This document shows, piece after piece, positions 1 through 26,722 of a stretch of DNA of 64,000 nt. The stretch is taken from positions 19,395-83,394 of the forward strand of contig JBDIBI010000023.1 of assembly GCA_039812885.1 (NCBI GenBank), read 5' to 3'. Numbering within the stretch: position 1 is the stretch's first letter; every line of letters starts with the position of its first letter. Made by a program: the position numbers and the translations under genes. The notes beneath the pieces were generated by a model. That model did no database searches and was not told the origin of the DNA. It saw nothing but the letters and a program-made list of their open reading frames with translations. This DNA is from Blastocatellia bacterium (lineage in GTDB: Bacteria > Acidobacteriota > Blastocatellia > Chloracidobacteriales > JADJPF01).

Positions 1-163
1 GAACAAGACCTTCTTCAGTCATTACAGGATCGCTAACTGCCAATGGTGCTACTTGATTGGCATCAGCACGTTCTGGTAACTGAGTAGAAGAATTCATCAT
101 TGCACTGCTAGCTAATAAAGTGCTTGCTAGCAATAGTGCAAATAAAAACAAGTATTTTCTCAT
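1..163 (-). CDS. hypothetical secreted protein, N-terminal fragment (continues off the left edge)
   Basis: ATG at 163-161 is preceded by AAGGA. My translation, MRKYLFLFALLLASTLLASSAMMNSS..., looks like a signal peptide. The frame stays open to position 1. Confidence 0.4.
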   Translation of the reverse strand, partial: MRKYLFLFALLLASTLLASSAMMNSSTQLPERADANQVAPLAVSDPVMTEEGLV

Positions 164-233
164 AGATTATTCCTTTGTTTTCCTAGCAGGATTAAATTAA
201 TTTTATGAGTAGTTTTGTGACTACTCATTTTAT

Positions 234-836
234 TTATTTCATTTTGGCAACTAGACCAGTTTTAATATCAGCAGAAATTGGAGAAGCACCTAACCAAATT
301 GACCAAATACCTCTAGCCAATACAGGATCTTGGAAAGTAGCTTTGGTTTGTCCATTAGCTATAAACTCAATTTTTCCGCCTTGAGTCCAATGCAAAACAA
401 TCTCTTGATTAGTCTTCATATCTACTTGTGCAGCTAAGAAAGCATCAGCATTTTTCTTTGCAGGAGAATTTGCATAATTAGGAATGTTGCTTTGTAAACT
501 TTCACCAAAAGCTTCTCTAATTTTTCCTGCATCAACGTCACGAACAAAATGCATGGTAATTTGCTTTGCTGGGCCATCGGAAAGTAATTGTGTATAAGGA
601 TCTGCTGCTTTGTTGATCTTGCTAGCATCCATATAGGAAGCAATTGCATAAACTTTGAAAATAGCTTTCTTTCTGATACCTACGCCAGTGATGGTTGCTT
701 TTGCTCCACCTACACTAACTTCAGCAGGAAAACTAACACCGCTAGATGGTTCAGTAACTTGTGCGTAAGTTGGTGAAAAACAAAATAGTAATGCTAATAG
801 TGCGAAAAAAGAAAAAACGAAATTTCTTCTAGACAT
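234..836 (-). CDS. chalcone-isomerase-fold (CHI-like) secreted protein
   Basis: 200-aa ORF with an N-terminal signal peptide (FSPTYAQV). The segment GVGIRKKAIFKVYAIASYMD resembles the bacterial CHI-like family. Confidence 0.5.
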   Translation of the reverse strand: MSRRNFVFSFFALLALLFCFSPTYAQVTEPSSGVSFPAEVSVGGAKATITGVGIRKKAIFKVYAIASYMDASKINKAADPYTQLLSDGPAKQITMHFVRDVDAGKIREAFGESLQSNIPNYANSPAKKNADAFLAAQVDMKTNQEIVLHWTQGGKIEFIANGQTKATFQDPVLARGIWSIWLGASPISADIKTGLVAKMK

Positions 837-1183
837 CTTTAAACTTTTGCTCCTTAAATTGATTATTTTTGAGATTATATATTTGGATTAGAAGATTTTC
901 CCTCGATTAGCTCAATATAGCAAGTCTTTTTATATAATCTGCTTTCCATTGCTAGGCTATATATTTTAACTATGGATCACTACATTTTATTGATTTATTT
1001 ATGGGTTATAATACTTTTGGCTTTCTAAGATTAGTAGGAAAGTTTTTATTTTTTATTTTTTATTTCTGATTTTTACTAGTGTAATTTTGTAGGTAAAATT
1101 AGAATATTACTTTGGGAACATAAATATTTCTTTTAGAGTCTAATAATAAAAATCTATTTTTGTATAACTAAGGGTGAAACTAT

Positions 1184-4100
1184 ATGAGAAAAGCAGGCAA
1201 AAATACCTTTGCTATTTTTGTTCTAGTCTCGATTATTGCACTGTTTGCAGGTGTTTGGCTTTATTTTTATCCTCAACAAGTGAAAAAGACAATTACTAAA
1301 AATTTTATAGTCTCTACAACTAAAAAAGGTTTGCAGTTTCGCTTGAGTGAAGGTGAAATGGAAGTTCCAACAAATGTCCCTATCGCTAAAGCAACAAAAC
1401 TCTCAGATAGTGAAGCCGAAAAAGTGTTAAGTAGGCTAGAACCACTAAAAGCTGATGAAGAAGACAAACAAGATTTTGCCTTAAGAGAAAAATCTCTTCC
1501 ACCTCCTAAGACAGGAGAGGTAATAACAACAAAATTTCCTCCTGACCAAAATATCAAGGCTGAAGAAGTAGCAAAAGGCCCTTTACAGGTGTTGCGCTAT
1601 TCTCCTAAGGATGATGTACCAATAGCTCCTAATGTAAGCATTACATTTTCACAGCCAATGGTTGCATTAAGTTCTCAGGAAGAAGCAAGCAAAACTGTTC
1701 CTGCAAAAATTAGCCCTGAAGTAGCAGGACATTGGCGATGGTTAGGCACAAAAACATTAGTCTTTGAGCCTAAAGATAAACGCTTGCCAATGTCTACTGA
1801 ATACACTGTAGAAGTTCCAGCAGGGACTAAATCTGTTATAGGTCAAAGTTTAGCTTCTGCTGTAACTTGGAAGTTTAGAACTCCTACTTTGACTCTAAAA
1901 AAATATTTTCCAACGGAAAATTCTGTTAATACTAATCCATTGATTTATTTAGAGTTTGACCAAGCTATAGACAAAAATCTTTTATTAAATCATCTTTCCC
2001 TAGTAGGAGCTACTAATAAGGAATATAAACTTAGACTTGCTACAGAAAATGAAATTCAAGATGAAGCTGATAAAAATACAAATGTCAGAACTCTAATCAA
2101 TGCAGCTAAAGACAAATGCTGGTTAGCTGTAAAGGTTGACAACAAACTGTTAGGAGATGTTGTAGACCTTTTGCCCAAAGATACTAATTTTGTGGTAAGT
2201 GTTGTAAGAGGAACCCCATCAACTGAAGGCTCGCTTACAACAACTAACAAACAAGATTTTTACTTCAGAACCTATAGTCCACTGAAAATAATTTCACAAT
2301 CTTGTAAAGATTATGTATGTGATCCAACATCCAATATAGAAGTTAAGCTAAATAATAAAATTAATCCTGATTCTATAGATATTTCTAAAGTAGTAATAAA
2401 CCCTACATTGCCAGGAATGAAGTTAATAATTTCAGAAAATACAGTCTACATAGAAGGTAAACTAAGAGGAGAGGCAAATTATATTCTCAAGCTTGAAAAA
2501 GAGTTTGCCAAAGACGTTTTTGGTCAATATCTTGAGCATTCTGAGGTTTTGAATTTTCCAATATCAAAGGCAAAAAAACAGCTAAATTCTCTGGGTGCGG
2601 ATTTTTTAATCTTAGATCCTTTTGCCTCAGCTAAATTGCCTGTCTTTAGCACAAATCACAATGAGCTTAAAGTAAGCGTTTATGCTGTTTCACCTGAAGA
2701 CTGGAAAGATTTTGCTAAGATGCAGGAAAATTTTTCTGCATCTTATGACAAACCCGTTAATTATCAACGTCCTGTAGGAAAATTTCTATATTCAAAAGTG
2801 ATAACACCTGCAAATCAACCTGATGAGCAGGTGGAAACAGATATAGATCTAAGTGAAGCATTCCAAAATGGAAGAAGCCAAGCTTTTGTTTTTATTGAGC
2901 CTACAACTCAGCCCAAAAGTTATTGGGAACGACAATACATAAGAAAATGGGTTCAATATAGCCAAATAGGCTTGGATGCAGCCGTAGACAATGAAGAAAT
3001 GCTAGTTTGGGCTAATTCTATAAAAACAGGTAAACCGTTGGCTGGGGTAGAAGTTTCCTTAAGAAACTCAACTGCTGTTACTGGTGCAGATGGACTTGCT
3101 CATCTCAAGCTTGAAAATGCTAGTTCAAAGGACAAACCTAGTTTTTTAATAGCAAAAAGTAAGAACGATACAGCTATTTTACCTAAAATTAGTTATTATA
3201 ATACAGCTATTTTATCTAGGACTGAGTACTCTGATGAAACTTGGTCAACCATCACAACACCAGACACACTATCTTGGTATGTAATTGATGACAGAAAGAC
3301 TTACAAGCCAGGTGAAAAAGTAACAATAAAAGGATGGGTAAGAGTTAGCGAAAATAAAAAAGGTGGAGATATAAAACTTGCAGGTCAAATAAAAACAATC
3401 AATTACACACTTAACGATAGTCAAGGTAATAAAATATCCACAGGAACGTTACAAGTTAATCCACTAGGTGGTTTTAATGGAGAACTTGCTTTGCCTAGTA
3501 CTATGAATTTGGGTAATGCTTATTTAACATTGGAAGCTTTGCCAAAGGCATATGAAAATCAAACATACTCACATACTTTTCAGGTACAAGAATTTAGACG
3601 ACCTGAATTTGAAGTTTCAACAAAAGCTGATTCAAATGCTTATTTGATAGGTGAGTATGCAAATGTAACCGTATCAGCTAATTACTATGCTGGAGGAACC
3701 TTAAACAATGCTGATGTTAATTGGCAAGTTAGTTCTTCTCCAACTACTTACACTCCTCCAAATCGTAGTGAATACATTTTTGGCAAATGGACTCCTTGGT
3801 GGGGAAGTTTTGATTATGAAGGTTATAGTCGTAGAGGACGCTATAGTAGTTACACAACAAGCGAAGATAGTGAATATAATTCAGAGCGTTTTGCAGGAAA
3901 AACTAGCCCAACAGGAACACATAACCTAAGAATAGATTTTGATGCTGTTAATCCTATAACTCCAAGCAGCATTAATGTTCAAGCTTCAGTAAGTGATGTT
4001 AATAGACAAACTTGGACATCAACTTCTACTTTGCTAGTACATCCATCAAGTCTTTATGTAGGGCTAAAGAGTGAAAAAACTTTTGTTGGACAAAATGAAC

Positions 4101-7100
4101 CTTTCATTCTTAAATCAATAGTATGTGATATAGATGGAAAACTTATTCCTAACACTTCCATAAATTTTAAGTTAGTCAGACTTGACTATGAATATGACAG
4201 TCAAGGCAGATACAAGAGCAAAGAAGTTGATCCACAAACTCAAACAATAACATCAAAAGATGATGCAGTAGAAGTTAGGTTTGTTCCTAAAGAAGGAGGC
4301 TCTTACAAACTTACAGCAACAGTAGTTGACCAAAAAGGACGTAAAAATCAAACAGAGCTAACTCTTTGGGTTACTGGTGGTAAAGTCTTACCAAGCAGAG
4401 ATTTAACACAAGAAAAGATTCAATTAATTCCTGATAAGAAAGAATATGCTGTTGGTCAAACTGCTCAAATCTTGCTTCAAGCTCCTTTCTATCCAGCAGA
4501 AGGACTCTTAACCTTGCACCGCTTAGGCATTGTTAAAACTGAGCGATTTACTGTTGATTCAGCTACTTACATAATCAAAATTCCTATTGAAGAAAGATAT
4601 TTGCCTAATATTGAACTTCAAGTTGAATTGATAGGAGAATCAAGCAGGAAACAATCGTCTGATAACTCAAATGATCAATTATCAAAGCGACCAGCCTTTG
4701 CAGTAGGGCAGTTGAATTTATCAATTCCACCTGCTTCACGTAGTTTAACGGTAGAAGCAACACCTAGAGAAAAAGCCATTGAGCCAGCAGGAGAAACAAC
4801 TATAGACTTAAAACTTACAGATGCTTCAAAACGAGCCGTTGCAAATGCTGAAGTAGCTTTGTTTGTTGTAGATGAGGCTATTTTAGCTCTTTCTAATTAT
4901 CAAATGAGTAACCCGTTAGACGTTTTTTATGCTTCTCGACCATCTTCTGTAACAAATAGCCATTCGCGAAGTTATGTTTTTTTAGCTAATCCCAAAGATG
5001 TAGAAACACAAGGCGAGTTAGTAATAAATGCCAATACATCAGTTCCGACATCAGAGCCTCGTACAGAGAACACAGGTTCTATTGTGACAAAAGATTTAGG
5101 TGGAGTAGCAGATGGAGTAGTCGGTGGAATAGTCGGTGGAGTAGTTGGTGGAGTAGTTGGAAGTAGCTCTGCTTCTGAACCACCACCACCGCCGCCTATG
5201 AGCTATAAAGATAGGCCAGCTAATAAAGCTACTTTTTTAATAAGAAGATCTGAAGGTGTAACAAGGTCTCATTTTGCACGTGAACAACTTCAACCATCTA
5301 TAAAAGTTAGAGAAAACTTTAATGCTTTAGCAGTGTTTGAAGCAGCATTATCAACAGACAACAATGGACATGCAGAGGTAAAAGTAAAACTTCCAGATAG
5401 CTTAACCAAATACAGAATAATGGCAATAGCAGTGGCAGGTGAAAACCGCTTTGGTTCAGGAGAATCAAGCATTACAGCGCGTATGCCATTGATGGTTAGA
5501 CCATCAGCACCACGTTTTCTAAACTTTGGAGATAGATTTGAATTTCCAGTAGTAGTGCAAAATCAGACAGATAAACCAATGAGTGTAGATGTAGCAATGC
5601 GTGCTACAAATGCAACTTTGACAGAGGGGTTAGGTCGTCGAGTAGATGTTCCAGCAAATGAACGGGTAGAGGTTCGTTTTCCTGTTTCTGCTGAAATGGC
5701 AGGTAAAGCTAGATTCCAAGTAGGAGTAGTGTCAGGCAAATGGAGCGATGCAGCTCAAGTTAGTTTACCTGTTTGGACTCCAGCCACTACAGAAGCTTTT
5801 GCTACATATGGGACATTTGAAAGTAATGCCATAATTCAACCAGTTAAAGCTCCTGCTGATACATATAAACAGTTTGGAGGTTTAGAGGTATCTACTTCAT
5901 CAACACAACTTCAAGAGTTAACAGATGCAGTACTTTACATAGTGTCTTATCCTTATGAGTGTTCTGAGCAAATTTCTTCTAGAATCCTTGCAATTGCAGC
6001 ATTGAAAGATGTTTTGTCAGCATTTAAGGCAAAAGGTTTACCTAGTGAGGAAGAAATAAATGCAAGAGTTGCAAAAGACCTAGATAAGCTTAAAAACATG
6101 CAAGGCTATGACGGAGGGTTTGGTTTCTGGAGGCCAAATGATACAAATCCATTTGTGACAATTCACGTAGCACACGCACTACAACGAGCTAAACTAAAAG
6201 GCTATAACATTCCTCAAGATATGTTAGACCGTGTTCATGAATACTTAAGGAACATAGAATCACATATTAATGGCTACTCACCAGAAACCACAATGTCAGT
6301 TATTGCCTATTCACTTTACGTAAGAAATTTAATGGGTGATAAAGATGTTGCCAAAGCTAAGAGTATTCTCAATTCAGTTTCACTAGATAAAACACCAATG
6401 GAAACAATAGGTTGGTTATGGCCTGTGTTTACAGGGGATTCAAGCTCAACCAAGGAATTAGAAGCTATTAGAAAGTTTGTTAACAATAGAGCCACTGAAA
6501 CTGCTGCAACTGCTCATTTTGTAACAAATTATGCTGAATCAAACTACTTGTTATTAGCTTCTAATTTTAGAACAGATGCAATACTTCTAGATGCTTTAAT
6601 AGGGGATCAACCTAATAGCGATTTAATACCTAAGCTAGTTAGAGGGCTTCTAGATCATAGAACAGCAGGAAGATGGGAAAGCACTCAAGAAAATGCTTAT
6701 GTATTGCTAGCACTTGACCGATATTTTAGAACATATGAGAAAGTAACACCTAACTTTATAGCTAGAGTTTGGTTAGGCGATAATTATGCTGGAGAACATT
6801 CATTTGTTGGGCGAACTACTGAAAAGTACCAGGTAAATATCCCAATGAGTTATTTAACAAATAGTGAGCAAAACCTTGTAATAAGCAAAGATGGAGCAGG
6901 TAGAATTTATTATCGAGCAGCTATGAATTATGCACCAAAGAGTTTGGATTTACCTGCGGCAGATTATGGTTTTGTTGTTGAAAGGAAATATGAAGCAGTA
7001 GACAATCCTTCAGATGTAACAAAGACTTCAGATGGAACATGGCGAATCAAAGCAGGTGCTAGAGTTAGAGTTAAATTAAGTATGGTTGCACAATCAATGC

Positions 7101-7450
7101 GCTATCATGTTGCACTAGTAGATCCACTAGCAGCAGGACTAGAAGCATTAAATCCAGCACTTGCTAATACAGGTGCAGTGCCTCCAGAGAATAACCTTAG
7201 TCAGCAAAATAATGCTTCTAGATATTGGTGGTGGAGTGGATTTTGGTATCAACATGAAAACTTTAGAGATGAACGAATAGAAGCATTTACTACATTACTT
7301 TTGGATGGTGTTTACTCTTATAGCTATGTAGCAAGAGCTACTACAATAGGGAGCTTTGTTGTTGCTCCTACAAAGGCTGAAGAGATGTATCATCCTGAAA
7401 CTTTTGGTAGAAGCAAGACTGATAAGGTTGTTGTTTATGAGGCAAAATAG
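1184..7450 (+). CDS. alpha-2-macroglobulin family protein, thioester-containing, membrane-anchored (copy A)
   Basis: 2088-aa ORF with one N-terminal TM helix (FAIFVLVSIIALFAGVWLYF) and no lipobox Cys. The thioester motif YPYECSEQ has its Cys codon at 5960-5962. Size and layout fit bacterial A2M/ECAM-like proteins. GGGTGA lies upstream of the ATG. Confidence 0.85.
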   Translation: MRKAGKNTFAIFVLVSIIALFAGVWLYFYPQQVKKTITKNFIVSTTKKGLQFRLSEGEMEVPTNVPIAKATKLSDSEAEKVLSRLEPLKADEEDKQDFALREKSLPPPKTGEVITTKFPPDQNIKAEEVAKGPLQVLRYSPKDDVPIAPNVSITFSQPMVALSSQEEASKTVPAKISPEVAGHWRWLGTKTLVFEPKDKRLPMSTEYTVEVPAGTKSVIGQSLASAVTWKFRTPTLTLKKYFPTENSVNTNPLIYLEFDQAIDKNLLLNHLSLVGATNKEYKLRLATENEIQDEADKNTNVRTLINAAKDKCWLAVKVDNKLLGDVVDLLPKDTNFVVSVVRGTPSTEGSLTTTNKQDFYFRTYSPLKIISQSCKDYVCDPTSNIEVKLNNKINPDSIDISKVVINPTLPGMKLIISENTVYIEGKLRGEANYILKLEKEFAKDVFGQYLEHSEVLNFPISKAKKQLNSLGADFLILDPFASAKLPVFSTNHNELKVSVYAVSPEDWKDFAKMQENFSASYDKPVNYQRPVGKFLYSKVITPANQPDEQVETDIDLSEAFQNGRSQAFVFIEPTTQPKSYWERQYIRKWVQYSQIGLDAAVDNEEMLVWANSIKTGKPLAGVEVSLRNSTAVTGADGLAHLKLENASSKDKPSFLIAKSKNDTAILPKISYYNTAILSRTEYSDETWSTITTPDTLSWYVIDDRKTYKPGEKVTIKGWVRVSENKKGGDIKLAGQIKTINYTLNDSQGNKISTGTLQVNPLGGFNGELALPSTMNLGNAYLTLEALPKAYENQTYSHTFQVQEFRRPEFEVSTKADSNAYLIGEYANVTVSANYYAGGTLNNADVNWQVSSSPTTYTPPNRSEYIFGKWTPWWGSFDYEGYSRRGRYSSYTTSEDSEYNSERFAGKTSPTGTHNLRIDFDAVNPITPSSINVQASVSDVNRQTWTSTSTLLVHPSSLYVGLKSEKTFVGQNEPFILKSIVCDIDGKLIPNTSINFKLVRLDYEYDSQGRYKSKEVDPQTQTITSKDDAVEVRFVPKEGGSYKLTATVVDQKGRKNQTELTLWVTGGKVLPSRDLTQEKIQLIPDKKEYAVGQTAQILLQAPFYPAEGLLTLHRLGIVKTERFTVDSATYIIKIPIEERYLPNIELQVELIGESSRKQSSDNSNDQLSKRPAFAVGQLNLSIPPASRSLTVEATPREKAIEPAGETTIDLKLTDASKRAVANAEVALFVVDEAILALSNYQMSNPLDVFYASRPSSVTNSHSRSYVFLANPKDVETQGELVINANTSVPTSEPRTENTGSIVTKDLGGVADGVVGGIVGGVVGGVVGSSSASEPPPPPPMSYKDRPANKATFLIRRSEGVTRSHFAREQLQPSIKVRENFNALAVFEAALSTDNNGHAEVKVKLPDSLTKYRIMAIAVAGENRFGSGESSITARMPLMVRPSAPRFLNFGDRFEFPVVVQNQTDKPMSVDVAMRATNATLTEGLGRRVDVPANERVEVRFPVSAEMAGKARFQVGVVSGKWSDAAQVSLPVWTPATTEAFATYGTFESNAIIQPVKAPADTYKQFGGLEVSTSSTQLQELTDAVLYIVSYPYECSEQISSRILAIAALKDVLSAFKAKGLPSEEEINARVAKDLDKLKNMQGYDGGFGFWRPNDTNPFVTIHVAHALQRAKLKGYNIPQDMLDRVHEYLRNIESHINGYSPETTMSVIAYSLYVRNLMGDKDVAKAKSILNSVSLDKTPMETIGWLWPVFTGDSSSTKELEAIRKFVNNRATETAATAHFVTNYAESNYLLLASNFRTDAILLDALIGDQPNSDLIPKLVRGLLDHRTAGRWESTQENAYVLLALDRYFRTYEKVTPNFIARVWLGDNYAGEHSFVGRTTEKYQVNIPMSYLTNSEQNLVISKDGAGRIYYRAAMNYAPKSLDLPAADYGFVVERKYEAVDNPSDVTKTSDGTWRIKAGARVRVKLSMVAQSMRYHVALVDPLAAGLEALNPALANTGAVPPENNLSQQNNASRYWWWSGFWYQHENFRDERIEAFTTLLLDGVYSYSYVARATTIGSFVVAPTKAEEMYHPETFGRSKTDKVVVYEAK

Positions 7451-7667
7451 GCAAGTAAGTTTTATATACAAGGTTTTATTCAGTTAATAATTTTGAAAGC
7501 AACAAAATGTTATTTGGGAAAATATGGACTCTGTTACATGGCATGAGCTATTATTGCTTAATCAGTTTCCAGAATGTATTTAAGGTTTCAATTAAGCTGA
7601 AAGAAATCGCTCAACTCAGCTTTATTTTTAAGTTTTTGTAAGAAAAATATAGTATGTTAAGGAGTAT

Positions 7668-8393
7668 ATGATTGTGAAAGATACCAGAGTAATTTCTCAC
7701 TATTTTTATAGTCTGTTATTTACTATTGCAATGGTTCTATTTATAAGTTTACCAGCAAAAGCTGATGATCAAATTGTTACTGATCCAGTGCTTAATACTG
7801 CTCTAAATCAAATAGAGAAGCTATTTCCTACAATAATTCAGCAAGAGCCTAGCTTAACAATAGGTGCAGTACCAGAGATTGATTTAGCTGGGAGCAAAGG
7901 TTCATTGAGCTTTTCTTTTGAGCAAGATAATGGAAGCTTTGCAATTAATTTTGATAGCTTAAAATTTTCTCCTACTAATCCAATTAGTGCTAATAAATTT
8001 AACATTACCTTAACTGCTAAAAATATTACATTAGCTGGTTCTGCCACTATTATGGTTATGGCTAATGGTCAGCAATACACATTGCAATGCCAAGATAGTC
8101 AGTTTGTTATTGGCCCAATCTCTTTTACCGCAGAGGCTGAAATTACAAAAGAAGACATCAATGTAGATAATCCAAAACTAGATTTTGATCCTGCTAACTT
8201 AATGATTGATATGCCTTGTTTAATGCAATCTGTTGCTGGTCGTGATGGTAAAGCCATTCCAATGGATGTTCTTAAAAAGCTCCAAAGTGCAATAAAATCA
8301 TCTGCTAGTAAACGTAAATCATCTGTATCCAAAGCTACACGTATGAGTTTTATGTTATTAAGTTCAGCAATTACTTTTCGTGGTGCTAATTAA
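7668..8393 (+). CDS. hypothetical secreted/anchored protein between the two A2M genes
   Basis: 241-aa ORF with a strong AAGGAG RBS 5 nt upstream of the ATG. The N-terminal hydrophobic segment ends in PAKADD and the C-terminal tail is basic and Ser-rich. I recognise no domain. Confidence 0.6.
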   Translation: MIVKDTRVISHYFYSLLFTIAMVLFISLPAKADDQIVTDPVLNTALNQIEKLFPTIIQQEPSLTIGAVPEIDLAGSKGSLSFSFEQDNGSFAINFDSLKFSPTNPISANKFNITLTAKNITLAGSATIMVMANGQQYTLQCQDSQFVIGPISFTAEAEITKEDINVDNPKLDFDPANLMIDMPCLMQSVAGRDGKAIPMDVLKKLQSAIKSSASKRKSSVSKATRMSFMLLSSAITFRGAN

Positions 8394-8421
8394 CTAAATA
8401 ATTTCTAAAATTTTTTTCAGG

Positions 8422-8456
8422 ATGGCAGCCTTTTCAATTGGCTGCCATTATCTTTT
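8422..8456 (+). terminator. putative intrinsic terminator after the 241-aa gene
   Basis: Stem ATGGCAGCC (8422-8430) pairs with GGCTGCCAT (8440-8448) across a 9-nt loop, followed by TTATCTTTT. Confidence 0.5.
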
Positions 8457-8630
8457 AGCCACTTTTTAGATCTTAGATTGAAACATTTAATCTAGCGAAT
8501 TTTACAATAAACTCTTCTTTTTCTAAGGAACATTATTGGCAGTTGTGCGACTATAGGTTAAGCGCTAGAAAACTAGTGCATTTATCTAATTTTAAAAGAC
8601 TTCCAAAAGTTCTAAAAATAGGTGGAATTT

Positions 8631-11600
8631 ATGAGAAAAGCTGGAAAAAGTACGTTTGCTATTTTTGCTCTAGTCTCGATGGTTGCAAGTATTGCGGGTG
8701 TTTGGCTTTATTTTCACCCGGAACAAGTGAAAAGCCTAAAGAAGGCTATTGCAAAAAATTTTACAGTTTCTAAAAGCAAAAAAGGTTTGCAGTTTCGCTT
8801 GAGTGAAGGTGAAATGGAAGTTCCAACAAATGTCCCTATCGCTAAAGCAACAAAACTCTCAGATAGTGAAGCCGAAAAAGTGTTAAGTAGGCTAGAACCA
8901 CTAAAAGCTGATGAAGAAGACAAACAAGATTTTGCCTTAAGAGAAAAATCTCTTCCACCTCCTAAGACAGGAGAGGTAATAACAACAAAATTTCCTCCTG
9001 ACCAAAATATCAAGGCTGAAGAAGTAGCAAAAGGCCCTTTACAGGTGTTGCGCTATTCTCCTAAGGATGATGTACCAATAGCTCCTAATGTAAGCATTAC
9101 ATTTTCACAGCCAATGGTTGCATTAAGTTCTCAGGAAGAAGCAAGCAAAACTGTTCCTGCAAAAATTAGCCCTGAAGTAGCAGGACATTGGCGATGGTTA
9201 GGCACAAAAACATTAGTCTTTGAGCCTAAAGATAAACGCTTGCCAATGTCTACTGAATACACTGTAGAAGTTCCAGCAGGGACTAAATCTGTTATAGGTC
9301 AAAGTTTAGCTTCTGCTGTAACTTGGAAGTTTAGAACTCCTACTTTGACTCTAAAAAAATATTTTCCAACGGAAAATTCTGTTAATACTAATCCATTGAT
9401 TTATTTAGAGTTTGACCAAGCTATAGACAAAAATCTTTTATTAAATAGTCTTTCTTTAATAGGATATAACGAAAATGACAAGAACTATAAGCTTAGGCTT
9501 GCAACAGAAAGTGAAATCCAAGAAGAAGTAGATAAAGATATAAATTTTAAAATTCTACTCAATGAAGCTAAAGATAAATATTGGCTAGCTGTAAAAGTTG
9601 ATAACACTGTGTTAGGTAATATTGAAGAACCTTTACCTAAGGACAGTAACTTTGGTGTAATTGTAAACATTGGTGCTTCAGGGGAAGGAGCACTTAAAAC
9701 AACTAGTAAACAAGAGTTTTCCTTTAAGACTTATAGTCCACTAAGAGTGACTTGGCAATCTTGCAAGGATTATGAATGCCGACCTGTAGACTATTTGCAA
9801 TTCAGTCTAAATAATCAACTTAGACCAAATTCTTTGGATATTTCTAAAGCAACAATAGAACCTAAAATACCAGGAATGACTATGATAGTTTCTGGTACTG
9901 TTGTAACAATTAGAGGTAAGTTGAAGGGAAGAATAACTTATAAGCTAAAGCTTGAAAAAGAATTTATTAAAGATACTTTCGGTCAATATCTTGAAAAAAC
10001 TCAAGAAATTAACTTCCCAATATCAGCAGCAAAAAAACAACTCACTTCAATAGGTGGTGAATTAATAGCACTAGATCCATTTGCTCCTGCTAAATTGCCA
10101 GTTTTTAGCACAAATCACAATGAACTTAAAGTAACTATTTATTCTATTTCTGCCGAAGAATGGAAAAATTTTAGTAGAATTAAAGAGGAAATTGCTCAAG
10201 CCTACAATAACCCAACTGCTTATCAAAGACCTGTGGGAACCCTTTTATATTCAAAAGTGATAACACCTGCAAATAAACCTGATGAGCAAGTGGAAACAGA
10301 TATAGACCTAAGTGCAGCATTCCAAAATGGAAGAGGCCAAGCTTTTGTTTTTATTGAACCTACAACTCAACCTAAAAATTATTGGGAACGAGAATACATA
10401 AGAAAATGGGTTCAATATACTCAAATAGGTTTGGATGCAGCTGTAGACAATGAAGAAATGCTAGTTTGGGCTAACTCTCTAAAAACAGGTAAGCCTTTGG
10501 CTGGTGTAGAAGTTTCCTTAAAAAACTCAACTGCTGTTACTGGTGCAGATGGACTTGCTCACCTCAAGCTTGAAAATGCTGCTCCAAAAGATGTGCCTGT
10601 TTTGATTGCAAAAAGTGGTAATGATACAGCTATTTTACCTCAGTCATCTTATGGTTATTATAGTACCACTTGGGCAAAAGCTAACACCTCAGATACGTTA
10701 TCTTGGTATGTAGTTGATGATAGAAAGACTTACAAGCCAGGTGAAAAAGTAACAATAAAAGGATGGGTAAGAGTTAGCGAAAATAAAAAAGGTGGAGATA
10801 TAAAACTTGCAGGTCAAATAAAAACAGTGAGTTACACACTTAATGATAGTCAAGGCAACAAAATATCCACAGGAACATTACAAGTTAATCCGCTAGGTGG
10901 TTTTAATGGAGAACTTGCTTTGCCTGGTACTATGAATTTGGGTAATGCTTATTTAACATTGGAAGCTTTGCCAAAGGCATATGAAAATCAAACATACTCA
11001 CATACTTTTCAGGTACAAGAATTTAGACGACCTGAATTTGAAGTTTCAACAAAAGCTGATTCAAATGCTTATTTGATAGGTGAGTATGCAAATGTAACCG
11101 TATCAGCTAATTACTATGCTGGAGGAACCTTAAACAATGCTGATGTTAATTGGCAAGTTAGTTCTTCTCCAACTACTTACACTCCTCCAAATCGTAGTGA
11201 ATACATTTTTGGCAAATGGACTCCTTGGTGGGGAAGTTTTGATTATGAAGGTTATAGTCGTAGAGGACGCTATAGTAGTTACACAACAAGCGAAGATAGT
11301 GAATATAATTCAGAGCGTTTTGCAGGAAAAACTAGCCCAACAGGAACACATAACCTAAGAATAGATTTTGATGCTGTTAATCCTATAACTCCAAGCAGCA
11401 TTAATGTTCAAGCTTCAGTAAGTGATGTTAATAGACAAACTTGGACATCAACTTCTACTTTGCTAGTACATCCATCAAGTCTTTATGTAGGGCTAAAGAG
11501 TGAAAAAACTTTTGTTGGACAAAATGAACCTTTCATTCTTAAATCAATAGTATGTGATATAGATGGAAAACTTATTCCTAACACTTCCATAAATTTTAAG

Positions 11601-14600
11601 TTAGTCAGACTTGACTATGAATATGACAGTCAAGGCAGATACAAGAGCAAAGAAGTTGATCCACAAACTCAAACAATAACATCAAAAGATGATGCAGTAG
11701 AAGTTAGGTTTGTTCCTAAAGAAGGAGGCTCTTACAAACTTACAGCAACAGTAGTTGACCAAAAAGGACGTAAAAATCAAACAGAGTTAACTCTTTGGGT
11801 TACTGGTGGTAAAGTGTTACCAAGCAGAGATTTAACACAAGAAAAAATTCAATTAATTCCTGACAAGAAAGAATATGCTGTTGGTCAAACTGCTCAAATC
11901 ATGCTTCAAGCTCCTTTCTATCCAGCAGAAGGACTCTTAACCTTGCGCCGCTTAGGCATTGTTAAGACCGAGCGATTTACTGTTGATTCAGCTACTTACA
12001 CAATCAAAGTTCCTATTGAAGAAAGCTATTTACCTAATGTTGAACTTCATGTTGATTTAGTGGGTGAGTCAGAAAGAAATCCAGATTCTAGTAGCCCAGG
12101 TTCTCAACTGTTAAAACGGCCAGCCTTTGCAGTAGGGCAGTTGAATTTATCAATTCCACCAGTTTCACGTAGTTTAACGGTAGAAGCAACACCTAGAGAA
12201 AAAGCCATTGAGCCAGCAGGAGAAACAACTATAGACTTAAAGCTTACAGATGCTTCAAAACGAGCTGTTGCAAATGCTGAAGTAGCTTTGTTTGTTGTAG
12301 ATGAGGCTATTTTAGCTCTTTCTAACTATCAAATGAGTAATCCGTTAAGTGTTTTTTATGCTTCTCGGCCAGCATCAGTATCAGACCATCATTTAAGAAG
12401 TTCTGTTGTACTAGCTAATCCTGAAGATATAGAAGCACAAGAGGAACTTGCTAGAAATAAAGAGGCAGGAAAACCTAAACCAATACCTTCAGCTGATAAA
12501 CTTGCTGAAATGGATGATGTGCTTGGAGGTGTGGAAGGTGGCGTAGCTGGTGGTGCAATGAACCGAGTTGCTGCTGCTCCTGCTGCTGAACCTCCTATGG
12601 CACCAATGGAAGCTAAAAAAGCTGAAAGAGCAGATGTAGCTAATGCAGTTCCAGCTAGGTCTTTAAAGGCTTCAAAACCTCCTGCATCCAATTCTCCTAT
12701 AAAAGTTAGAGAAAACTTTAATGCCTTGGCAGTGTTTGAAGCAGCATTATCAACAGACAGCAATGGACATGCAGAGGTAAAAGTAAAACTTCCAGATAGC
12801 TTAACCAAATACAGAATAATGGCAATAGCAGTAGCAGGTGAAAACCGCTTTGGTTCAGGAGAATCAAGCATTACAGCGCGTATGCCATTGATGGTTAGAC
12901 CATCAGCACCACGTTTTCTAAACTTTGGAGATAAGTTTGAATTTCCAGTAGTAGTGCAAAATCAGACAAATAAACCAATGAGTGTAGATGTAGCAATGCG
13001 TGCTACAAATGCAACTTTGACAGAGGGGTTAGGTCGTCGAGTAGATGTTCCAGCAAATGAACGGGTAGAGGTTCGTTTTCCTGTTTCTGCTGAAATGGCA
13101 GGTAAAGCTAGATTCCAAGTAGGAGTAGTGTCAGGCAAATGGAGCGATGCAGCTCAAGTTAGTTTACCTGTTTGGACTCCAGCCACTACAGAAGCTTTTG
13201 CTACATATGGGACATTTGAAAGTAATGCCATAATTCAACCAGTTAAAGCTCCTGCTGATACATATAAACAGTTTGGAGGTTTAGAGGTATCTACTTCATC
13301 AACACAACTTCAAGAGTTAACAGATGCAGTACTTTACATAGTGTCTTATCCTTATGAGTGTTCTGAGCAAATTTCTTCTAGAATCCTTGCAATTGCAGCA
13401 TTGAAAGATGTTTTGTCAGCATTTAAGGCAAAAGGTTTACCTAGTGAGGAAGAAATAAATGCAAGAGTTGCAAAAGACCTAGATAAGCTTAAAAACATGC
13501 AAGGCTATGACGGAGGGTTTGGTTTCTGGAGGCCAAATGATACAAATCCATTTGTGACAATTCACGTAGCACACGCACTACAACGAGCTAAACTAAAAGG
13601 CTATAACATTCCTCAAGATATGTTAGACCGTGTTCATGAATACTTAAGGAACATAGAATCACATATTAATGGCTACTCACCAGAAACCACAATGTCAGTT
13701 ATTGCCTATTCACTTTACGTAAGAAATTTAATGGGTGATAAAGATGTTGCCAAAGCTAAGAGTATTCTCAATTCAGTTTCACTAGATAAAACACCAATGG
13801 AAACAATAGGTTGGTTATGGCCTGTGTTTACAGGGGATTCAAGCTCAACCAAGGAATTAGAAGCTATTAGAAAGTTTGTTAACAATAGAGCCACTGAAAC
13901 TGCTGCAACTGCTCATTTTGTAACAAATTATGCTGAATCAAACTACTTGTTATTAGCTTCTAATTTTAGAACAGATGCAATACTTCTAGATGCTTTAATA
14001 GGGGATCAACCTAATAGCGATTTAATACCTAAGCTAGTTAGAGGGCTTCTAGATCATAGAACAGCAGGAAGATGGGAAAGCACTCAAGAAAATGCTTATG
14101 TATTGCTAGCACTTGACCGATATTTTAGAACATATGAGAAAGTAACACCTAACTTTATAGCTAGAGTTTGGTTAGGCGATAATTATGCTGGAGAACATTC
14201 ATTTGTTGGGCGAACTACTGAAAAGTACCAGGTAAATATCCCAATGAGTTATTTAACAAATAGTGAGCAAAACCTTGTAATAAGCAAAGATGGAGCAGGT
14301 AGAATTTATTATCGAGCAGCTATGAATTATGCACCAAAGAGTTTGGATTTACCTGCGGCAGATTATGGTTTTGTTGTTGAAAGGAAATATGAAGCAGTAG
14401 ACAATCCTTCAGATGTAACAAAGACTTCAGATGGAACATGGCGAATCAAAGCAGGTGCTAGAGTTAGAGTTAAATTAAGTATGGTTGCACAATCAATGCG
14501 CTATCATGTTGCACTAGTAGATCCACTAGCAGCAGGACTAGAAGCATTAAATCCAGCACTTGCTAATACAGGTGCAGTGCCTCCAGAGAATAACCTTAGT

Positions 14601-14852
14601 CAGCAAAATAATGCTTCTAGATATTGGTGGTGGAGTGGATTTTGGTATCAACATGAAAACTTTAGAGATGAACGAATAGAAGCATTTACTACATTACTTT
14701 TGGATGGTGTTTACTCTTATAGCTATGTAGCAAGAGCTACTACAATAGGGAGCTTTGTTGTTGCTCCTACAAAGGCTGAAGAGATGTATCATCCTGAAAC
14801 TTTTGGTAGAAGCAAGACTGATAAGGTTGTTGTTTATGAGGCAGGAAAATAA
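8631..14852 (+). CDS. alpha-2-macroglobulin family protein, thioester-containing, membrane-anchored (copy B)
   Basis: The ORF track starts at a GTG (8622). The ATG at 8631 is homologous to the copy A start (MRKAGK) and has an AGGTGG RBS. The same YPYECSEQ motif is present (Cys codon 13359-13361). The C-terminal ~715 residues match copy A except for 3 substitutions and the last residues. Confidence 0.85.
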   Translation: MRKAGKSTFAIFALVSMVASIAGVWLYFHPEQVKSLKKAIAKNFTVSKSKKGLQFRLSEGEMEVPTNVPIAKATKLSDSEAEKVLSRLEPLKADEEDKQDFALREKSLPPPKTGEVITTKFPPDQNIKAEEVAKGPLQVLRYSPKDDVPIAPNVSITFSQPMVALSSQEEASKTVPAKISPEVAGHWRWLGTKTLVFEPKDKRLPMSTEYTVEVPAGTKSVIGQSLASAVTWKFRTPTLTLKKYFPTENSVNTNPLIYLEFDQAIDKNLLLNSLSLIGYNENDKNYKLRLATESEIQEEVDKDINFKILLNEAKDKYWLAVKVDNTVLGNIEEPLPKDSNFGVIVNIGASGEGALKTTSKQEFSFKTYSPLRVTWQSCKDYECRPVDYLQFSLNNQLRPNSLDISKATIEPKIPGMTMIVSGTVVTIRGKLKGRITYKLKLEKEFIKDTFGQYLEKTQEINFPISAAKKQLTSIGGELIALDPFAPAKLPVFSTNHNELKVTIYSISAEEWKNFSRIKEEIAQAYNNPTAYQRPVGTLLYSKVITPANKPDEQVETDIDLSAAFQNGRGQAFVFIEPTTQPKNYWEREYIRKWVQYTQIGLDAAVDNEEMLVWANSLKTGKPLAGVEVSLKNSTAVTGADGLAHLKLENAAPKDVPVLIAKSGNDTAILPQSSYGYYSTTWAKANTSDTLSWYVVDDRKTYKPGEKVTIKGWVRVSENKKGGDIKLAGQIKTVSYTLNDSQGNKISTGTLQVNPLGGFNGELALPGTMNLGNAYLTLEALPKAYENQTYSHTFQVQEFRRPEFEVSTKADSNAYLIGEYANVTVSANYYAGGTLNNADVNWQVSSSPTTYTPPNRSEYIFGKWTPWWGSFDYEGYSRRGRYSSYTTSEDSEYNSERFAGKTSPTGTHNLRIDFDAVNPITPSSINVQASVSDVNRQTWTSTSTLLVHPSSLYVGLKSEKTFVGQNEPFILKSIVCDIDGKLIPNTSINFKLVRLDYEYDSQGRYKSKEVDPQTQTITSKDDAVEVRFVPKEGGSYKLTATVVDQKGRKNQTELTLWVTGGKVLPSRDLTQEKIQLIPDKKEYAVGQTAQIMLQAPFYPAEGLLTLRRLGIVKTERFTVDSATYTIKVPIEESYLPNVELHVDLVGESERNPDSSSPGSQLLKRPAFAVGQLNLSIPPVSRSLTVEATPREKAIEPAGETTIDLKLTDASKRAVANAEVALFVVDEAILALSNYQMSNPLSVFYASRPASVSDHHLRSSVVLANPEDIEAQEELARNKEAGKPKPIPSADKLAEMDDVLGGVEGGVAGGAMNRVAAAPAAEPPMAPMEAKKAERADVANAVPARSLKASKPPASNSPIKVRENFNALAVFEAALSTDSNGHAEVKVKLPDSLTKYRIMAIAVAGENRFGSGESSITARMPLMVRPSAPRFLNFGDKFEFPVVVQNQTNKPMSVDVAMRATNATLTEGLGRRVDVPANERVEVRFPVSAEMAGKARFQVGVVSGKWSDAAQVSLPVWTPATTEAFATYGTFESNAIIQPVKAPADTYKQFGGLEVSTSSTQLQELTDAVLYIVSYPYECSEQISSRILAIAALKDVLSAFKAKGLPSEEEINARVAKDLDKLKNMQGYDGGFGFWRPNDTNPFVTIHVAHALQRAKLKGYNIPQDMLDRVHEYLRNIESHINGYSPETTMSVIAYSLYVRNLMGDKDVAKAKSILNSVSLDKTPMETIGWLWPVFTGDSSSTKELEAIRKFVNNRATETAATAHFVTNYAESNYLLLASNFRTDAILLDALIGDQPNSDLIPKLVRGLLDHRTAGRWESTQENAYVLLALDRYFRTYEKVTPNFIARVWLGDNYAGEHSFVGRTTEKYQVNIPMSYLTNSEQNLVISKDGAGRIYYRAAMNYAPKSLDLPAADYGFVVERKYEAVDNPSDVTKTSDGTWRIKAGARVRVKLSMVAQSMRYHVALVDPLAAGLEALNPALANTGAVPPENNLSQQNNASRYWWWSGFWYQHENFRDERIEAFTTLLLDGVYSYSYVARATTIGSFVVAPTKAEEMYHPETFGRSKTDKVVVYEAGK

Positions 14853-15190
14853 AGGATATTTCCAACAAATAGCTGTGAAGTTTATCTAGGGGGAATTTCA
14901 CCTTTTGCCTGTGGATAACTGCGCAAATTTTATTCTACAGAAAGGCATTCTTGGCAAGTTAGAATAAAGACAAGTAGATTATTAGAAATAAGTGGAGTGT
15001 TGTGTTAGGTTAGATTTTAAATACAGAGTTTTATGATTTTCTATTAGCTTCCTATAACAAGTTATTTAAGAACTAGTTACTAAAAACTCAATTTAGCTGT
15101 AACTAGGATAAAAAGATGCAACTATGGAACAAAAGTTGCGAGTTATTTATTGCTATTATGCCCCACTATTTAATTGTTTAGGAGGTTATT

Positions 15191-15724
15191 ATGAAATCTG
15201 AAGCAACAGTAAAGGCAAAAGTAGAGAATCTGCTAAAACCAATATTTGTCGAAGCAAAAGAACTTTTTGGTGAGATAAAGAAGCTAGAAGAAGCCATTGC
15301 AAAACGTGCTTATGAGTTTTTTGAAAAACGTGGAGGCAAGCATGGAAATGACTTAAATGATTGGTTTTTAGCTGAATCTGAATTACTAAAACCTGTACCA
15401 ATAGAGATCAAAGATACAGAAGACATTGTAACTGTAATAGCTGAAGTCCCAGGATTTGCAGCAGAAGATATAAAAGTTAGTGTAGAAGATAACGTACTTA
15501 TGATTAATGGGAAATTCACAAAGACTGAGGAAAAGAAAGAAGAAGGCAAAGTTGTCTTTTCAGAAATTAAATCTACTCAGTTCTTGCGCGAGTTAGTACT
15601 TCCAGCAATAGTAGATATGTCAAAGGCCGAAGCAGTTCTAAAAGACGGTGTTTTGACTCTTACTTTACCTAAGCTAGTTATTGCAGAAAAGGAAAAAAAG
15701 GAAATAGAGGTAAAGATTGTTTAG
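15191..15724 (+). CDS. Hsp20/alpha-crystallin small heat-shock protein with an N-terminal DUF2934-like extension
   Basis: The alpha-crystallin-like core runs IEIKDTEDIVTVIAEVPGFAAEDIKVSVEDNVLMINGK...LKDGVLTLTLPK. The N-terminal segment IAKRAYEFFEKRGGKHGNDLNDWFLAE looks like DUF2934. A GGAGG RBS is present. Confidence 0.8.
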   Translation: MKSEATVKAKVENLLKPIFVEAKELFGEIKKLEEAIAKRAYEFFEKRGGKHGNDLNDWFLAESELLKPVPIEIKDTEDIVTVIAEVPGFAAEDIKVSVEDNVLMINGKFTKTEEKKEEGKVVFSEIKSTQFLRELVLPAIVDMSKAEAVLKDGVLTLTLPKLVIAEKEKKEIEVKIV

Positions 15725-15761
15725 TAAAAACCACTGTGTAAGGGTAAATTTAGCAAAAAAA

Positions 15762-15800
15762 TAAGCCGCAAGTGGTAGGGCTACTTGTGGCTTATTTTAT
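15762..15800. terminator. bidirectional intrinsic terminator between convergent hsp20 and the NHL gene
   Basis: AAGCCGCAAGT ... ACTTGTGGCTT stem with an A-run on one side and TTATTTTATTTT on the other. Confidence 0.6.
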
Positions 15801-15880
15801 TTTGTTAAATGAGCTAGAAATATAAGTTAAGAGAGCTAATTTAGGGTTAAGTAAGTCTTAACCCTAGTATTATGCGTTGT

Positions 15881-25049: not shown

Positions 25050-25186
25050 AAATGTAAGTTTACTTTTCACAAAAAATTATTTTCAACAAGCGCTTTTTCA
25101 TTTGCTCTGTTATAATTATCCTATTTTCAATAACACAAAAATTTTTAAGGTTTAATCCTACCCTATTTTGGGCTGGGAGGCTTTTG

Positions 25187-26722
25187 ATGAAAGAAATTCA
25201 GCCAAACTTAGATTTGCAACCCACCAACAAAAAAGTAATAAGCTTTAACCAACTATTTCCTGAAAAAGTGGTAACAATTAAATTAACAGGCCCAGGTTTA
25301 ATCATAAGCCTTGTCTTTGTTTTACTTACAGGTGTTGGAATAGGGTCGTTAGTTGTTAACCATGCTAGTGCTACTCCACAAACACCTGCTCAAATACGTA
25401 TGAATGTGGAAAGTAGCTCAGCTTTTTCTCTTTCTGCGGCCTTTGCTAATGCTACAAAAGCTGTAGAAAGCAGTGTGGTGTATATTACTACGGTAGATAT
25501 TGATGGTGATAGAGATGCATTTTTAAGTCAGAGTAGTGGATCTGGTTTTGTTGTTGACTCTACAGGCTATATTTTAACTAATTATCATGTGGTAAAAGAC
25601 GCTAGTAAGATCAAAGTAAGATTTATAGATGGTTTAATCTTAACTGGTGTTATGATTGGTTTTGATGAAGAAACCGATTTAGCCGTAGTTAAAGTAAATG
25701 CAGGTAAGAGTCTAAAAGCTGCCCATATTGGAGATTCAGAGCATGTAATAGTAGGGGATTGGGTTTTGGCTATTGGAAGCCCATTTGGTTTAGAGCAAAC
25801 TGTTACAGCAGGAATTATTAGTGCTAAAGAACGTGTTACAGATCAAAGTCGTAATTTTCAGCAATTTTTACAAACTGATGCTGCTATTAATCCAGGAAAC
25901 TCTGGTGGGCCTTTAATTAATTTATCTGGTGAGGTTATTGGGGTTAACTCTCAAATAGCTACACGTAAAGGAAGTTTTGAAGGTATAGGTTTTGCGGTTC
26001 CTTCAGCAATTTTTACTGATGTTTATAATCAACTAATTACTAGTGGAAGGGTTTCAAGAGGTTATCTAGGAGTTTATCCTAGTAAGGTAACAAGTCAATT
26101 TGCACAAGTTTATGGCTTAAAAGAGCCTATTGGAGCACTAGTTAATGATCTTACAGAAGTAGATGGGCCTGCTGCTAAAGCTGGGTTAAAGAGTGGAGAT
26201 GTAATTTTAGAGTTTGATGGCCATTCTGTTAAAGATGATAGAGATTTGGTTCGTTATATTGTTTCTACTAGAATAAATAAACCAACACCAGTAAAATACT
26301 TAAGAAATGGCTTAATGCAATCAACTATGGTAACTTTAGTAGAAAGACAAGCTAAGCCAACTCCTAATGTACTTCGCAACATTCAAGAAACTAAGCCTAA
26401 ACTAGCTAGATCTGAAAAAGATATAGTTACAAAATTAGGTTTATCAATAGCTTCCTTAACAGAAGTTCGAGCTCAACAACTAGGTGCTAAATCGACAAGC
26501 GGAGTTGTTGTAAGAACGGTCAATGTAGATAATATTGCTTATGATTCAGGGCTTCGAGATGGAGATATAATCAAAGAAATCAACAAGTTACCTGTAAGTA
26601 AGGAAGAAGATTTTACACAAGTAATTAACAAATTAAAAACAGGGGATTCATTAGTACTTTTTGTTGAAAGGACTTCTCGTTTAAGTGCCTCTCATCGTTA
26701 TATATCGCTTACGATTCCATAA
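25187..26722 (+). CDS. htrA: HtrA/DegP-family periplasmic serine protease with two PDZ domains
   Basis: TNYHVV (His), DLAVVKV (Asp) and GNSGGPL (Ser) are present, plus two PDZ-like C-terminal segments and an N-terminal TM anchor. A GGGAGG RBS precedes the ATG at 25187. Confidence 0.85.
   Translation: MKEIQPNLDLQPTNKKVISFNQLFPEKVVTIKLTGPGLIISLVFVLLTGVGIGSLVVNHASATPQTPAQIRMNVESSSAFSLSAAFANATKAVESSVVYITTVDIDGDRDAFLSQSSGSGFVVDSTGYILTNYHVVKDASKIKVRFIDGLILTGVMIGFDEETDLAVVKVNAGKSLKAAHIGDSEHVIVGDWVLAIGSPFGLEQTVTAGIISAKERVTDQSRNFQQFLQTDAAINPGNSGGPLINLSGEVIGVNSQIATRKGSFEGIGFAVPSAIFTDVYNQLITSGRVSRGYLGVYPSKVTSQFAQVYGLKEPIGALVNDLTEVDGPAAKAGLKSGDVILEFDGHSVKDDRDLVRYIVSTRINKPTPVKYLRNGLMQSTMVTLVERQAKPTPNVLRNIQETKPKLARSEKDIVTKLGLSIASLTEVRAQQLGAKSTSGVVVRTVNVDNIAYDSGLRDGDIIKEINKLPVSKEEDFTQVINKLKTGDSLVLFVERTSRLSASHRYISLTIP

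Follow-up and report, generated by a model that had tools for sequence, protein, structure and literature searches.

Tandem alpha-2-macroglobulin genes of a Blastocatellia bacterium with identical and diverged segments in alternation

The gene pair and its identity mosaic

Two genes for giant thioester alpha-2-macroglobulins (A2M) lie head-to-tail on the same strand, 1.17 kb apart, in a stretch of 64,000 nucleotides from a Blastocatellia bacterium (contig JBDIBI010000023.1), and this whole stretch is referred to below as the window. A preliminary description of this DNA had reported two same-strand open reading frames (ORFs) about 1.2 kb apart that both keep the motif YPYECSEQ, and they were found at 1184-7450 and 8622/8631-14852. 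The two genes, abbreviated A and B, and the thioester motif are:

1184-7450, plus strand: A2M-A, a 2088-aa thioester alpha-2-macroglobulin with a predicted N-terminal transmembrane anchor, recognized by Pfam, its match to ECAM/YfhM and a hydrophobic segment
8631-14852, plus strand: A2M-B, a 2073-aa paralogue, counted from the ATG that matches the start of A
5960-5971, plus strand: thioester motif CSEQ of A (counterpart in B, 13359-13370)

The ORF of B has an alternative GTG start at 8622, which would give a product of 2076 aa; the product of 2073 aa from the ATG at 8631 begins with MRKAGK, as does that of A. The nucleotide alignment of both genes with their flanks placed the onset of the homology a few bases 5' of the ATG and its end at the last codons (EAK in A, EAGK in B), and the flanking DNA of A and B is unrelated to each other. 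The overall amino-acid identity of the two products is 88%, and it is distributed over the following segments, given in the coordinates of A with those of B in brackets:

1184-1321, plus strand: anchor and linker, diverged; dS 0.52, 71% aa identity
1322-1990 (8778-9446), plus strand: identical tract 1, an exact run of 669 nt that covers the Big_5 Ig-like domain
1991-2770 (9447-10229), plus strand: diverged block 1, 55-88% nt identity, dS 0.93, dN 0.29; predicted folded domains of the MG0-NIE-MG1 type
2771-3130, plus strand: intermediate block, 88-95% nt identity, dS 0.24
3131-3292 (10590-10721), plus strand: diverged block 2, 40-80% nt identity with a 30-nt indel, dS 1.04; predicted surface loop
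3498-4357 (10927-11786), plus strand: identical tract 2, an exact run of 860 nt in the middle macroglobulin (MG) domains
4601-4690 (12030-12119), plus strand: diverged block 3, 56% nt identity, dS 0.88; low-complexity loop in the A2M_BRD Pfam domain
4921-5300 (12350-12699), plus strand: diverged block 4, 31-71% nt identity with several indels; predicted bait region
5571-7444 (12970-14843), plus strand: identical tract 3, an exact run of 1874 nt from the end of the A2M domain (aa 1463) to the C-terminus

The three exact tracts together make up 54% of the gene, and tract 3 contains the thioester domain and the bMG10/C-terminal MG (CTMG) domain with its RDER and EEMY motifs. Diverged block 2 includes a 10-residue insertion carried by A, and in block 4 the two proteins share 39% aa identity with a dN of 0.58. 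Blocks outside the tracts and the diverged blocks are 88-98% identical at the nucleotide level. This map agrees closely with the preliminary description, which had placed identical stretches at 1322-1990 against 8778-9446, at about 5600-7447 against about 12999-14846 and over most of 3500-4370, diverged ones at about 4560-4700 and at 4921-5299, and only three amino-acid differences (N/S, R/K, D/N) in the C-terminal half before the ends EAK and EAGK. A diverged block proposed to run from 1991 to about 3270 was borne out for 1991-2770 and 3131-3292; its part at 2771-3130 belongs to the 88-95% class.

Synonymous and nonsynonymous divergence (dS and dN) were estimated block by block by the Nei-Gojobori method. 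Between A and B, the three tracts had a dS of 0, and values of 0.07-0.24 were obtained for the intermediate blocks and of 0.88-1.04 for the diverged ones; this excludes uniform synonymous divergence along the pair, in line with the uneven pattern first suspected. The ratio omega (dN/dS) was between 0.3 and 0.6 in the diverged blocks and below 1 everywhere. The same three tracts differ from the orthologue O1 at a dS of 0.73-0.92; therefore, purifying constraint cannot account for the identity of A and B, which requires that sequence was exchanged non-reciprocally from one gene to the other.

The gene-conversion analysis that had been suggested for this pair was carried out as a GENECONV-style permutation test on the sites variable among A, B and two orthologues. 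In the three tracts, A equalled B over 610, 299 and 251 polymorphic sites in succession, against a maximum of 61 in 10,000 permutations (p < 1e-4 per tract). Moreover, A grouped with B in 500 of 500 quartet bootstrap replicates of the converted parts. The intermediate block at 2771-3130 can be read as the trace of an older conversion, and in this sequence comparison the divergence of the pair falls into at least three age classes, a pattern that is diagnostic of non-reciprocal exchange on repeated occasions. Conversion had been proposed for the thioester/receptor half. The process itself was supported, and its range proved wider, reaching the Big_5 region and the middle MG domains as well.

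The encoded proteins and the segments that stay different

Domains above the Pfam cut-offs were detected in both products for Big_5, bMG3, MG2, A2M_BRD, A2M and bMG10; no NCBIfam model matches A, and exact-sequence look-ups of A and B returned no existing record. The motif YPYECSEQ occupies residues 1589-1596 of A (Cys 1593) and 1573-1580 of B (numbered from the ATG) and aligns with YPYGCLEQ of ECAM, so that the CxEQ thioester of the superfamily is predicted in both copies. The best solved relatives by sequence were Escherichia coli ECAM/YfhM (E 6.5e-35) and Salmonella A2M; Foldseek ranked Salmonella A2M and ECAM first, followed by C3, C5 and human A2M. Serial MG domains and a C-terminal MG domain, which define the superfamily, were found, the latter with the motifs RDER and EEMY in both A and B; the corresponding motifs of ECAM are RDDR and ExMY (PMC4498604). 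The N-terminus holds a hydrophobic 19-mer at residues 8-26 (Kyte-Doolittle 2.1-2.6) and no Cys occurs in the first 60 residues, which suggests a signal-anchor helix and not a lipobox. Members of this subfamily have about 2000-2100 aa and are common in metagenome-assembled genomes (MAGs) labelled Acidobacteriota, Chloroflexota, Armatimonadota and Myxococcota.

Diverged block 4 (residues ~1246-1375 of A) is the predicted bait, a disordered and hypervariable region of about 100 residues. This assignment is made because of its position between Pfam A2M_BRD and A2M, because it fills a gap in the ECAM alignment at chain positions 883-936, where the bait of ECAM is expected, because a 46-sequence family alignment has no invariant column between residues 1267 and 1376 and nearly invariant flanks, and because the AlphaFold (AF2) model of residues 1001-1539 has a predicted local distance difference test (pLDDT) score below 50 at 1256-1269 and 1281-1379. 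The top structural matches of this model were again Salmonella A2M and ECAM. In ECAM, residues Arg923-Leu942 are disordered in the numbering of the published structure (PMC4498604), and the offset between that numbering and the chain positions was inferred here. In the models, a disordered hypervariable bait precedes the A2M domain (PF00207), in agreement with the exposed bait that characterizes the superfamily.

The two baits differ in length and composition. The bait of A is rich in S, V and G, has F and Y and contains a (V/I)VGG repeat, and the bait of B is rich in A, K, E and P with zero aromatic residues. The (V/I)VGG repeats (window 5100-5160) are encoded by 12-nt units, and populations in three metagenomes (X5, X6 and X7) carry one extra in-frame 12-nt VVGG unit in the bait of A, behind position 5129.

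Two further segments that remain different are predicted to be disordered loops, namely block 3 (residues ~1140-1170, AF2 pLDDT below 50 at 1155-1165) and the insertion of block 2 (residues 670-683, AF2 pLDDT below 50). Block 1 (residues 270-529), on the other hand, is well folded in the prediction, with an AF2 pLDDT of 85. The best Protein Data Bank (PDB) match for the model of residues 201-769 (pLDDT 85) was the MG0-NIE-MG1 structure of ECAM (4zjg; E 4.9e-16, template modelling score 0.62 on target). According to this model, the bacterial-specific N-terminal domains MG0-NIE-MG1 are present, and block 1 corresponds to these domains, which adjoin the membrane anchor.

The unconverted segments are also the least conserved ones across the family: their identity to relatives beyond the orthologue was 19-53%, compared with 50-75% for the converted parts, and the same segments were the least similar within three unconverted tandem pairs of other lineages (L041, L060 and L067). 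As they are the fastest-evolving parts of the family, the observed pattern is expected from a homology barrier alone.

History of the pair and competing explanations

The comparison with other genomes involves the genes that surround and separate the two copies:

234-836, minus strand: chalcone-isomerase-like gene (Pfam Chalcone_3), the upstream syntenic anchor; 84% nt match to L081 1889-2791
7668-8393, plus strand: orf241, an orphan gene in the spacer of A and B; an N-terminal signal peptide is predicted for its product
15191-15724, plus strand: HSP20 gene (Pfam HSP20), absent from the single-copy locus L081
15881-17947, minus strand: NHL-repeat/lactonase gene (Pfam), the downstream syntenic anchor; 78% aa match to the end of L081

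The nearest relative (P0002, 74% identity) is encoded on a 9.8-kb contig, L081, which has the same neighbours: the chalcone-isomerase-like gene lies upstream, and downstream the NHL gene follows after 38 nt. The A2M gene of this locus is single, and both orf241 and HSP20 are absent. Other tandem pairs of this subfamily were detected in MAGs labelled Blastocatellia (L041 9842-23054), Kofleriaceae (L060 1-12196) and Deltaproteobacteria (L067 6029-18405). Like A and B, these pairs are arranged head-to-tail and are least similar in the bait (41-45%) and over residues 300-500; unlike A and B, they share 62-67% aa identity and no identical tracts, as old duplicates without recent conversion. The comparison of the locus among relatives that had been called for thus gave a syntenic single-copy locus and tandem pairs lacking identical tracts. 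Separately, an Acidobacteriota MAG (L057 9710-16028) carries an A2M homologue split into overlapping ORFs of 595 and 1559 aa, possibly by a frameshift or an assembly error.

In the diverged parts, dS between A and B (0.93) is close to that between B and O1 (0.85) and between A and O1 (0.79), and these near-equal values indicate that A and B split at about the time of that speciation. B is nearer than A to O1 in every diverged block. Raw identities would place A outside the pair formed by B and O1; as the bootstraps do not resolve this, a duplication before the speciation is not claimed. A loss of one copy in the relative with L081, easy by recombination between tandem repeats, fits these data, and so does a gain of the sequence of copy A by the lineage of the window from a sister lineage.

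For orf241, no Pfam or NCBIfam match was obtained, and its only homologue among 5.8 billion proteins is P0132 (60% identity), encoded in another genome at L083 3103-3816, downstream of two M16 peptidase genes and adjoining parB/parA. A role of orf241 as a conserved A2M partner was discarded, given that this single homologue does not stand beside an A2M gene. Since the homologue lies elsewhere, the arrangement A-orf241-B is not a plain duplication of one segment.

The mosaic could also have been formed by import, either through a recent tandem duplication after which blocks of A were replaced with DNA of a related species, or through insertion of a whole foreign homologue that was then partly converted back. 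Such an origin would agree with A being the copy more distant from every relative in each diverged block, with the single, B-like copy of L081 and with the position of the orf241 homologue at another locus of another genome, by which the insertion would have brought non-local DNA. However, no donor of the diverged blocks of A was found among the best full-length matches (P0002-P0012): the nearest sequences to these blocks in that set were B and O1 (57-58%), and the others reached at most 46%. The cassette-like import of segments put forward in the preliminary description found no support in this set. A fragment search with the diverged N-terminal blocks of A retrieved only distant partial proteins (29-36%), and this search also missed its own query protein. 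Import would moreover require at least four separate events, the intermediate dS of 0.07-0.24 is better explained by copies that coexisted for long and were converted repeatedly than by a single recent event, and the identical tracts would need conversion even so. For these reasons we regard import as distinctly unlikely.

It was also considered that the assembler, strain collapse or multi-mapped polishing reads had created the second copy or made the tracts perfectly identical, given that the window comes from a metagenome-type contig, that exact repeats of 0.7-1.9 kb exceed the length of short reads and that the locus is not spanned by any long read. The sequence was found in about 20 public metagenome runs of several studies (activated sludge, sludge, wastewater and hot-spring mats), and Logan contigs of four runs from four studies were placed on positions 1-17000 of the window. 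All four gene-end junctions were recovered by the contigs of these four independent metagenomes, that is, from the chalcone-isomerase-like gene to the 5' end of A, from the 3' end of A across the spacer into B at its 5' end, and from the 3' end of B to the HSP20 and NHL genes; the spacer was present at single depth. The two deepest runs gave depths of 10.5-13.4 (X5) and 9.3-12.2 (X6) in the unique parts and of 25.9-29.9 and 23.5-27.2, respectively, in the shared tracts, with tract 1 at about twice the single depth in X5 and tract 3 at about twice in both. The contig ends of these two runs lie within the tracts, at a distance of exactly k-1 bases (30 nt) from the tract edge, at 1351, 1961, 7415, 8807, 9417 and 14814. 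A set of high-depth 31-mers at 1043-1075 was discarded as a signal, being only a T-rich low-complexity stretch. These depths and breakpoints are what is expected for two tandem copies with truly identical tracts, as seen in independent metagenomes, and they meet the concern, raised at the outset, that the second copy could be an assembly artefact. In addition, segments that are 88-97% identical were kept distinct by the assembly, which argues that near-identical sequence was not collapsed, and an artefact is considered very improbable. For those who assemble or annotate such loci, it is worth noting that all short-read assemblies inspected had this gene broken up by its exact repeats (0.7-1.9 kb).

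In another scenario, the duplication would be recent, the bait and the N-terminal blocks would have diverged quickly by adaptation, and conversion would not be required. This would agree with the family-wide hypervariability of the bait and its high dN (0.58), but is hardly credible: the dS profile speaks against it, with 0.88-1.04 in the diverged blocks, a value comparable to that against the orthologue, and 0 in the tracts; dS is not raised by positive selection, and omega stays below 1 everywhere.

Additional data hint at recent conversion of tract 1. In a hot-spring sample (S7), the contig that joins the unique upstream sequence of A to tract 1 has 9 differences from the window, and the contig that joins tract 1 to the unique block 1 of B has 1 difference, so that in this population about 8 of the 669 sites distinguish the A-linked from the B-linked copy of tract 1. 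In X5, a further haplotype of tract 1 is common to the two copies, at double depth. These observations tentatively suggest, at a depth of 5-7x and with possible strain mixture and bubble popping, that the conversion of tract 1 is recent and not fixed, and that independent conversions took place in different strains. The haplotypes of tract 1 across X5, X7, X10 and X12 also differ by clusters of single-nucleotide polymorphisms in all four combinations. This four-gamete pattern was discounted as a sign of recombination inside tract 1, since bubble popping in Logan can create chimeras.

Altogether, we consider it probable (about 0.8) that A and B are old tandem paralogues under recurrent, probably ongoing gene conversion, encoding two periplasmic traps that are anchored in the membrane and differ from each other chiefly in the bait. 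A and B would have separated at roughly the same time as the lineage of the window and the nearest sampled species. Homologous, non-reciprocal recombination between the copies would then have repeatedly overwritten the better-conserved segments, the three tracts most recently (identical) and the neighbouring segments earlier (dS 0.07-0.24), and the fastest-evolving segments, i.e., the anchor, the MG0-NIE-MG1-like domains, the two surface loops and the bait, would have escaped. By analogy with ECAM and Salmonella A2M (PMC4498604), each protein would be anchored in the inner membrane and face the periplasm, a protease that cuts the bait would trigger a conformational change, and this change would expose the Cys-Gln thioester for covalent linkage to the protease, which would be trapped. 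The cell probably makes two traps of the same machinery with different baits. Two baits of different specificity would be mounted on the same thioester/CUB/C-terminal machinery, and the pair probably differs in the range of triggering proteases and may so widen this range.

Several points weigh against this interpretation. The trap function of the subfamily is assumed from ECAM and Salmonella A2M. The lipobox of ECAM-type A2M was not found, with no Cys within the first 60 residues, and no transglycosylase or transpeptidase domain indicative of a linked pbpC/PBP1C gene was detected in ORFs of at least 150 aa in the window (at least 100 aa up to 20 kb), in which only 1.2 kb upstream of A is visible; bacterial type-1 A2M genes often, though not always, share an operon with pbpC (PMC4498604). 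Short RNA-seq contigs touch B-specific and possibly A-specific blocks, a weak indication that both genes are transcribed. The quartet four-point bootstraps of the diverged parts resolved no topology, and the above-mentioned gain of the sequence of copy A from a sister lineage fits the data. The internal phase, meaning which diverged blocks share one copy, comes from the window assembly alone; each diverged block of B is the one nearer to O1, in agreement with the phase that the window shows. The comparison of strains was made on low-depth Logan contigs, in which bubble popping and strain mixtures can mislead. Finally, an omega of 0.3-0.6 gives no sign of positive selection maintaining the differences between A and B.

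This last point bears on the proposal, made in the preliminary description, that selected segments are kept different, which did not gain support: with these omega values, and the unconverted blocks being the fastest-evolving parts of the family, a homology barrier explains the pattern equally well. A more far-reaching version was also formulated, in which selection would keep a small repertoire of baits and membrane-proximal domains while conversion would keep the costly trap machinery uniform and purged of mutations, as a bacterial counterpart of the metazoan A2M/TEP strategy. Changes in the repeat units of the bait would tune the specificity of strains in an arms race with the proteases of predators or competitors in sludge and mats, and the unconverted blocks would be actively protected and not merely too diverged. 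We think this version unlikely.

Known systems and surroundings of the pair

The closest known system is that of ECAM (YfhM) and Salmonella A2M (PDB 5a42, 4ziq, 4rtd and 4u48; PMC4498604). A and B share with these proteins the CxEQ thioester, the ring of MG domains, a predicted disordered bait between the BRD and the next MG domain, a C-terminal MG domain with RD(D/E)R and ExMY, N-terminal domains of the MG0-NIE-MG1 type and, by implication, anchoring in the inner membrane. In contrast, A and B are about 440 residues longer, have an extra Big_5 Ig-like domain and a predicted transmembrane helix as anchor instead of a lipobox cysteine, form a tandem pair with no pbpC/PBP1C gene seen within the 64 kb, and reach only 13-16% identity to ECAM and Salmonella A2M in structural alignments.

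Exchange of segments within the same superfamily has been described for the neighbouring thioester-protein (TEP) genes TEP1, TEP5 and TEP6 of Anopheles, where it gives chimeras with sharply uneven divergence (PMC2576239). As in A and B, neighbouring paralogues exchange segments there; the mosquito genes are eukaryotic, with meiotic recombination, and conversion creates divergent alleles of one locus, whereas in A and B conversion appears to homogenize two bacterial paralogues and spare the bait. Concerted evolution of duplicated bacterial genes is also exemplified by tufA/tufB. Such evolution by gene conversion has been reported in duplicated prokaryotic genes, e.g., mtrA in methanogens (PMC4632066). 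The mtrA and tufA/tufB genes resemble A and B in a RecA-type non-reciprocal exchange that leaves some parts identical while others diverge, with tracts of hundreds of bases to a few kb; A and B differ from them in the protein family and in that the parts left unconverted coincide with the bait, which would determine the specificity of a protease trap.

No account of A2M paralogues in tandem in bacteria, or of bait-sparing conversion, was retrieved in the literature searches. The protein family and the evolutionary process are both known and their combination was not found described for bacteria, so that the finding is solid and not revolutionary. The role attributed to bacterial alpha-2-macroglobulins is to defend the periplasm against foreign proteases, and the determinants of their target range, as well as its evolution, have been barely studied beyond E. 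coli and Salmonella. The locus offers a natural bait-swap experiment, with the same thioester and closing machinery in two proteins whose differences lie essentially in the bait, in two loops and in the domains next to the anchor, and the comparison of A and B could show how the bait sequence sets specificity in a monomeric bacterial trap. Likewise, an environmental bacterium that is uncultured here provides a clean case of partial concerted evolution that can be dated, with hints of continuing conversion between strains.

The surroundings of the pair in the window are ordinary chromosomal genes. The Rfam scan of the whole window gave zero matches, and the promoter and terminator scan gave counts not above those in shuffled sequence. 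A strong terminator-like hairpin lies at 15758-15798, 3' of the HSP20 gene (15191-15724), and together they occupy the interval between B and the NHL gene (14853-15880); in L081, the stop codons of the A2M and NHL genes are only 38 nt apart. The NHL-repeat/lactonase gene (15881-17947, minus strand) has internal direct repeats, and metagenome contigs jump over 508, 118 or 67 nt of it, which suggests that the number of repeats varies between strains. Farther downstream, the window encodes an HtrA/DegP-like serine protease with PDZ domains (25184-26722) and an S46 dipeptidyl-peptidase (47037-49124), which are possible candidates for endogenous periplasmic proteases.

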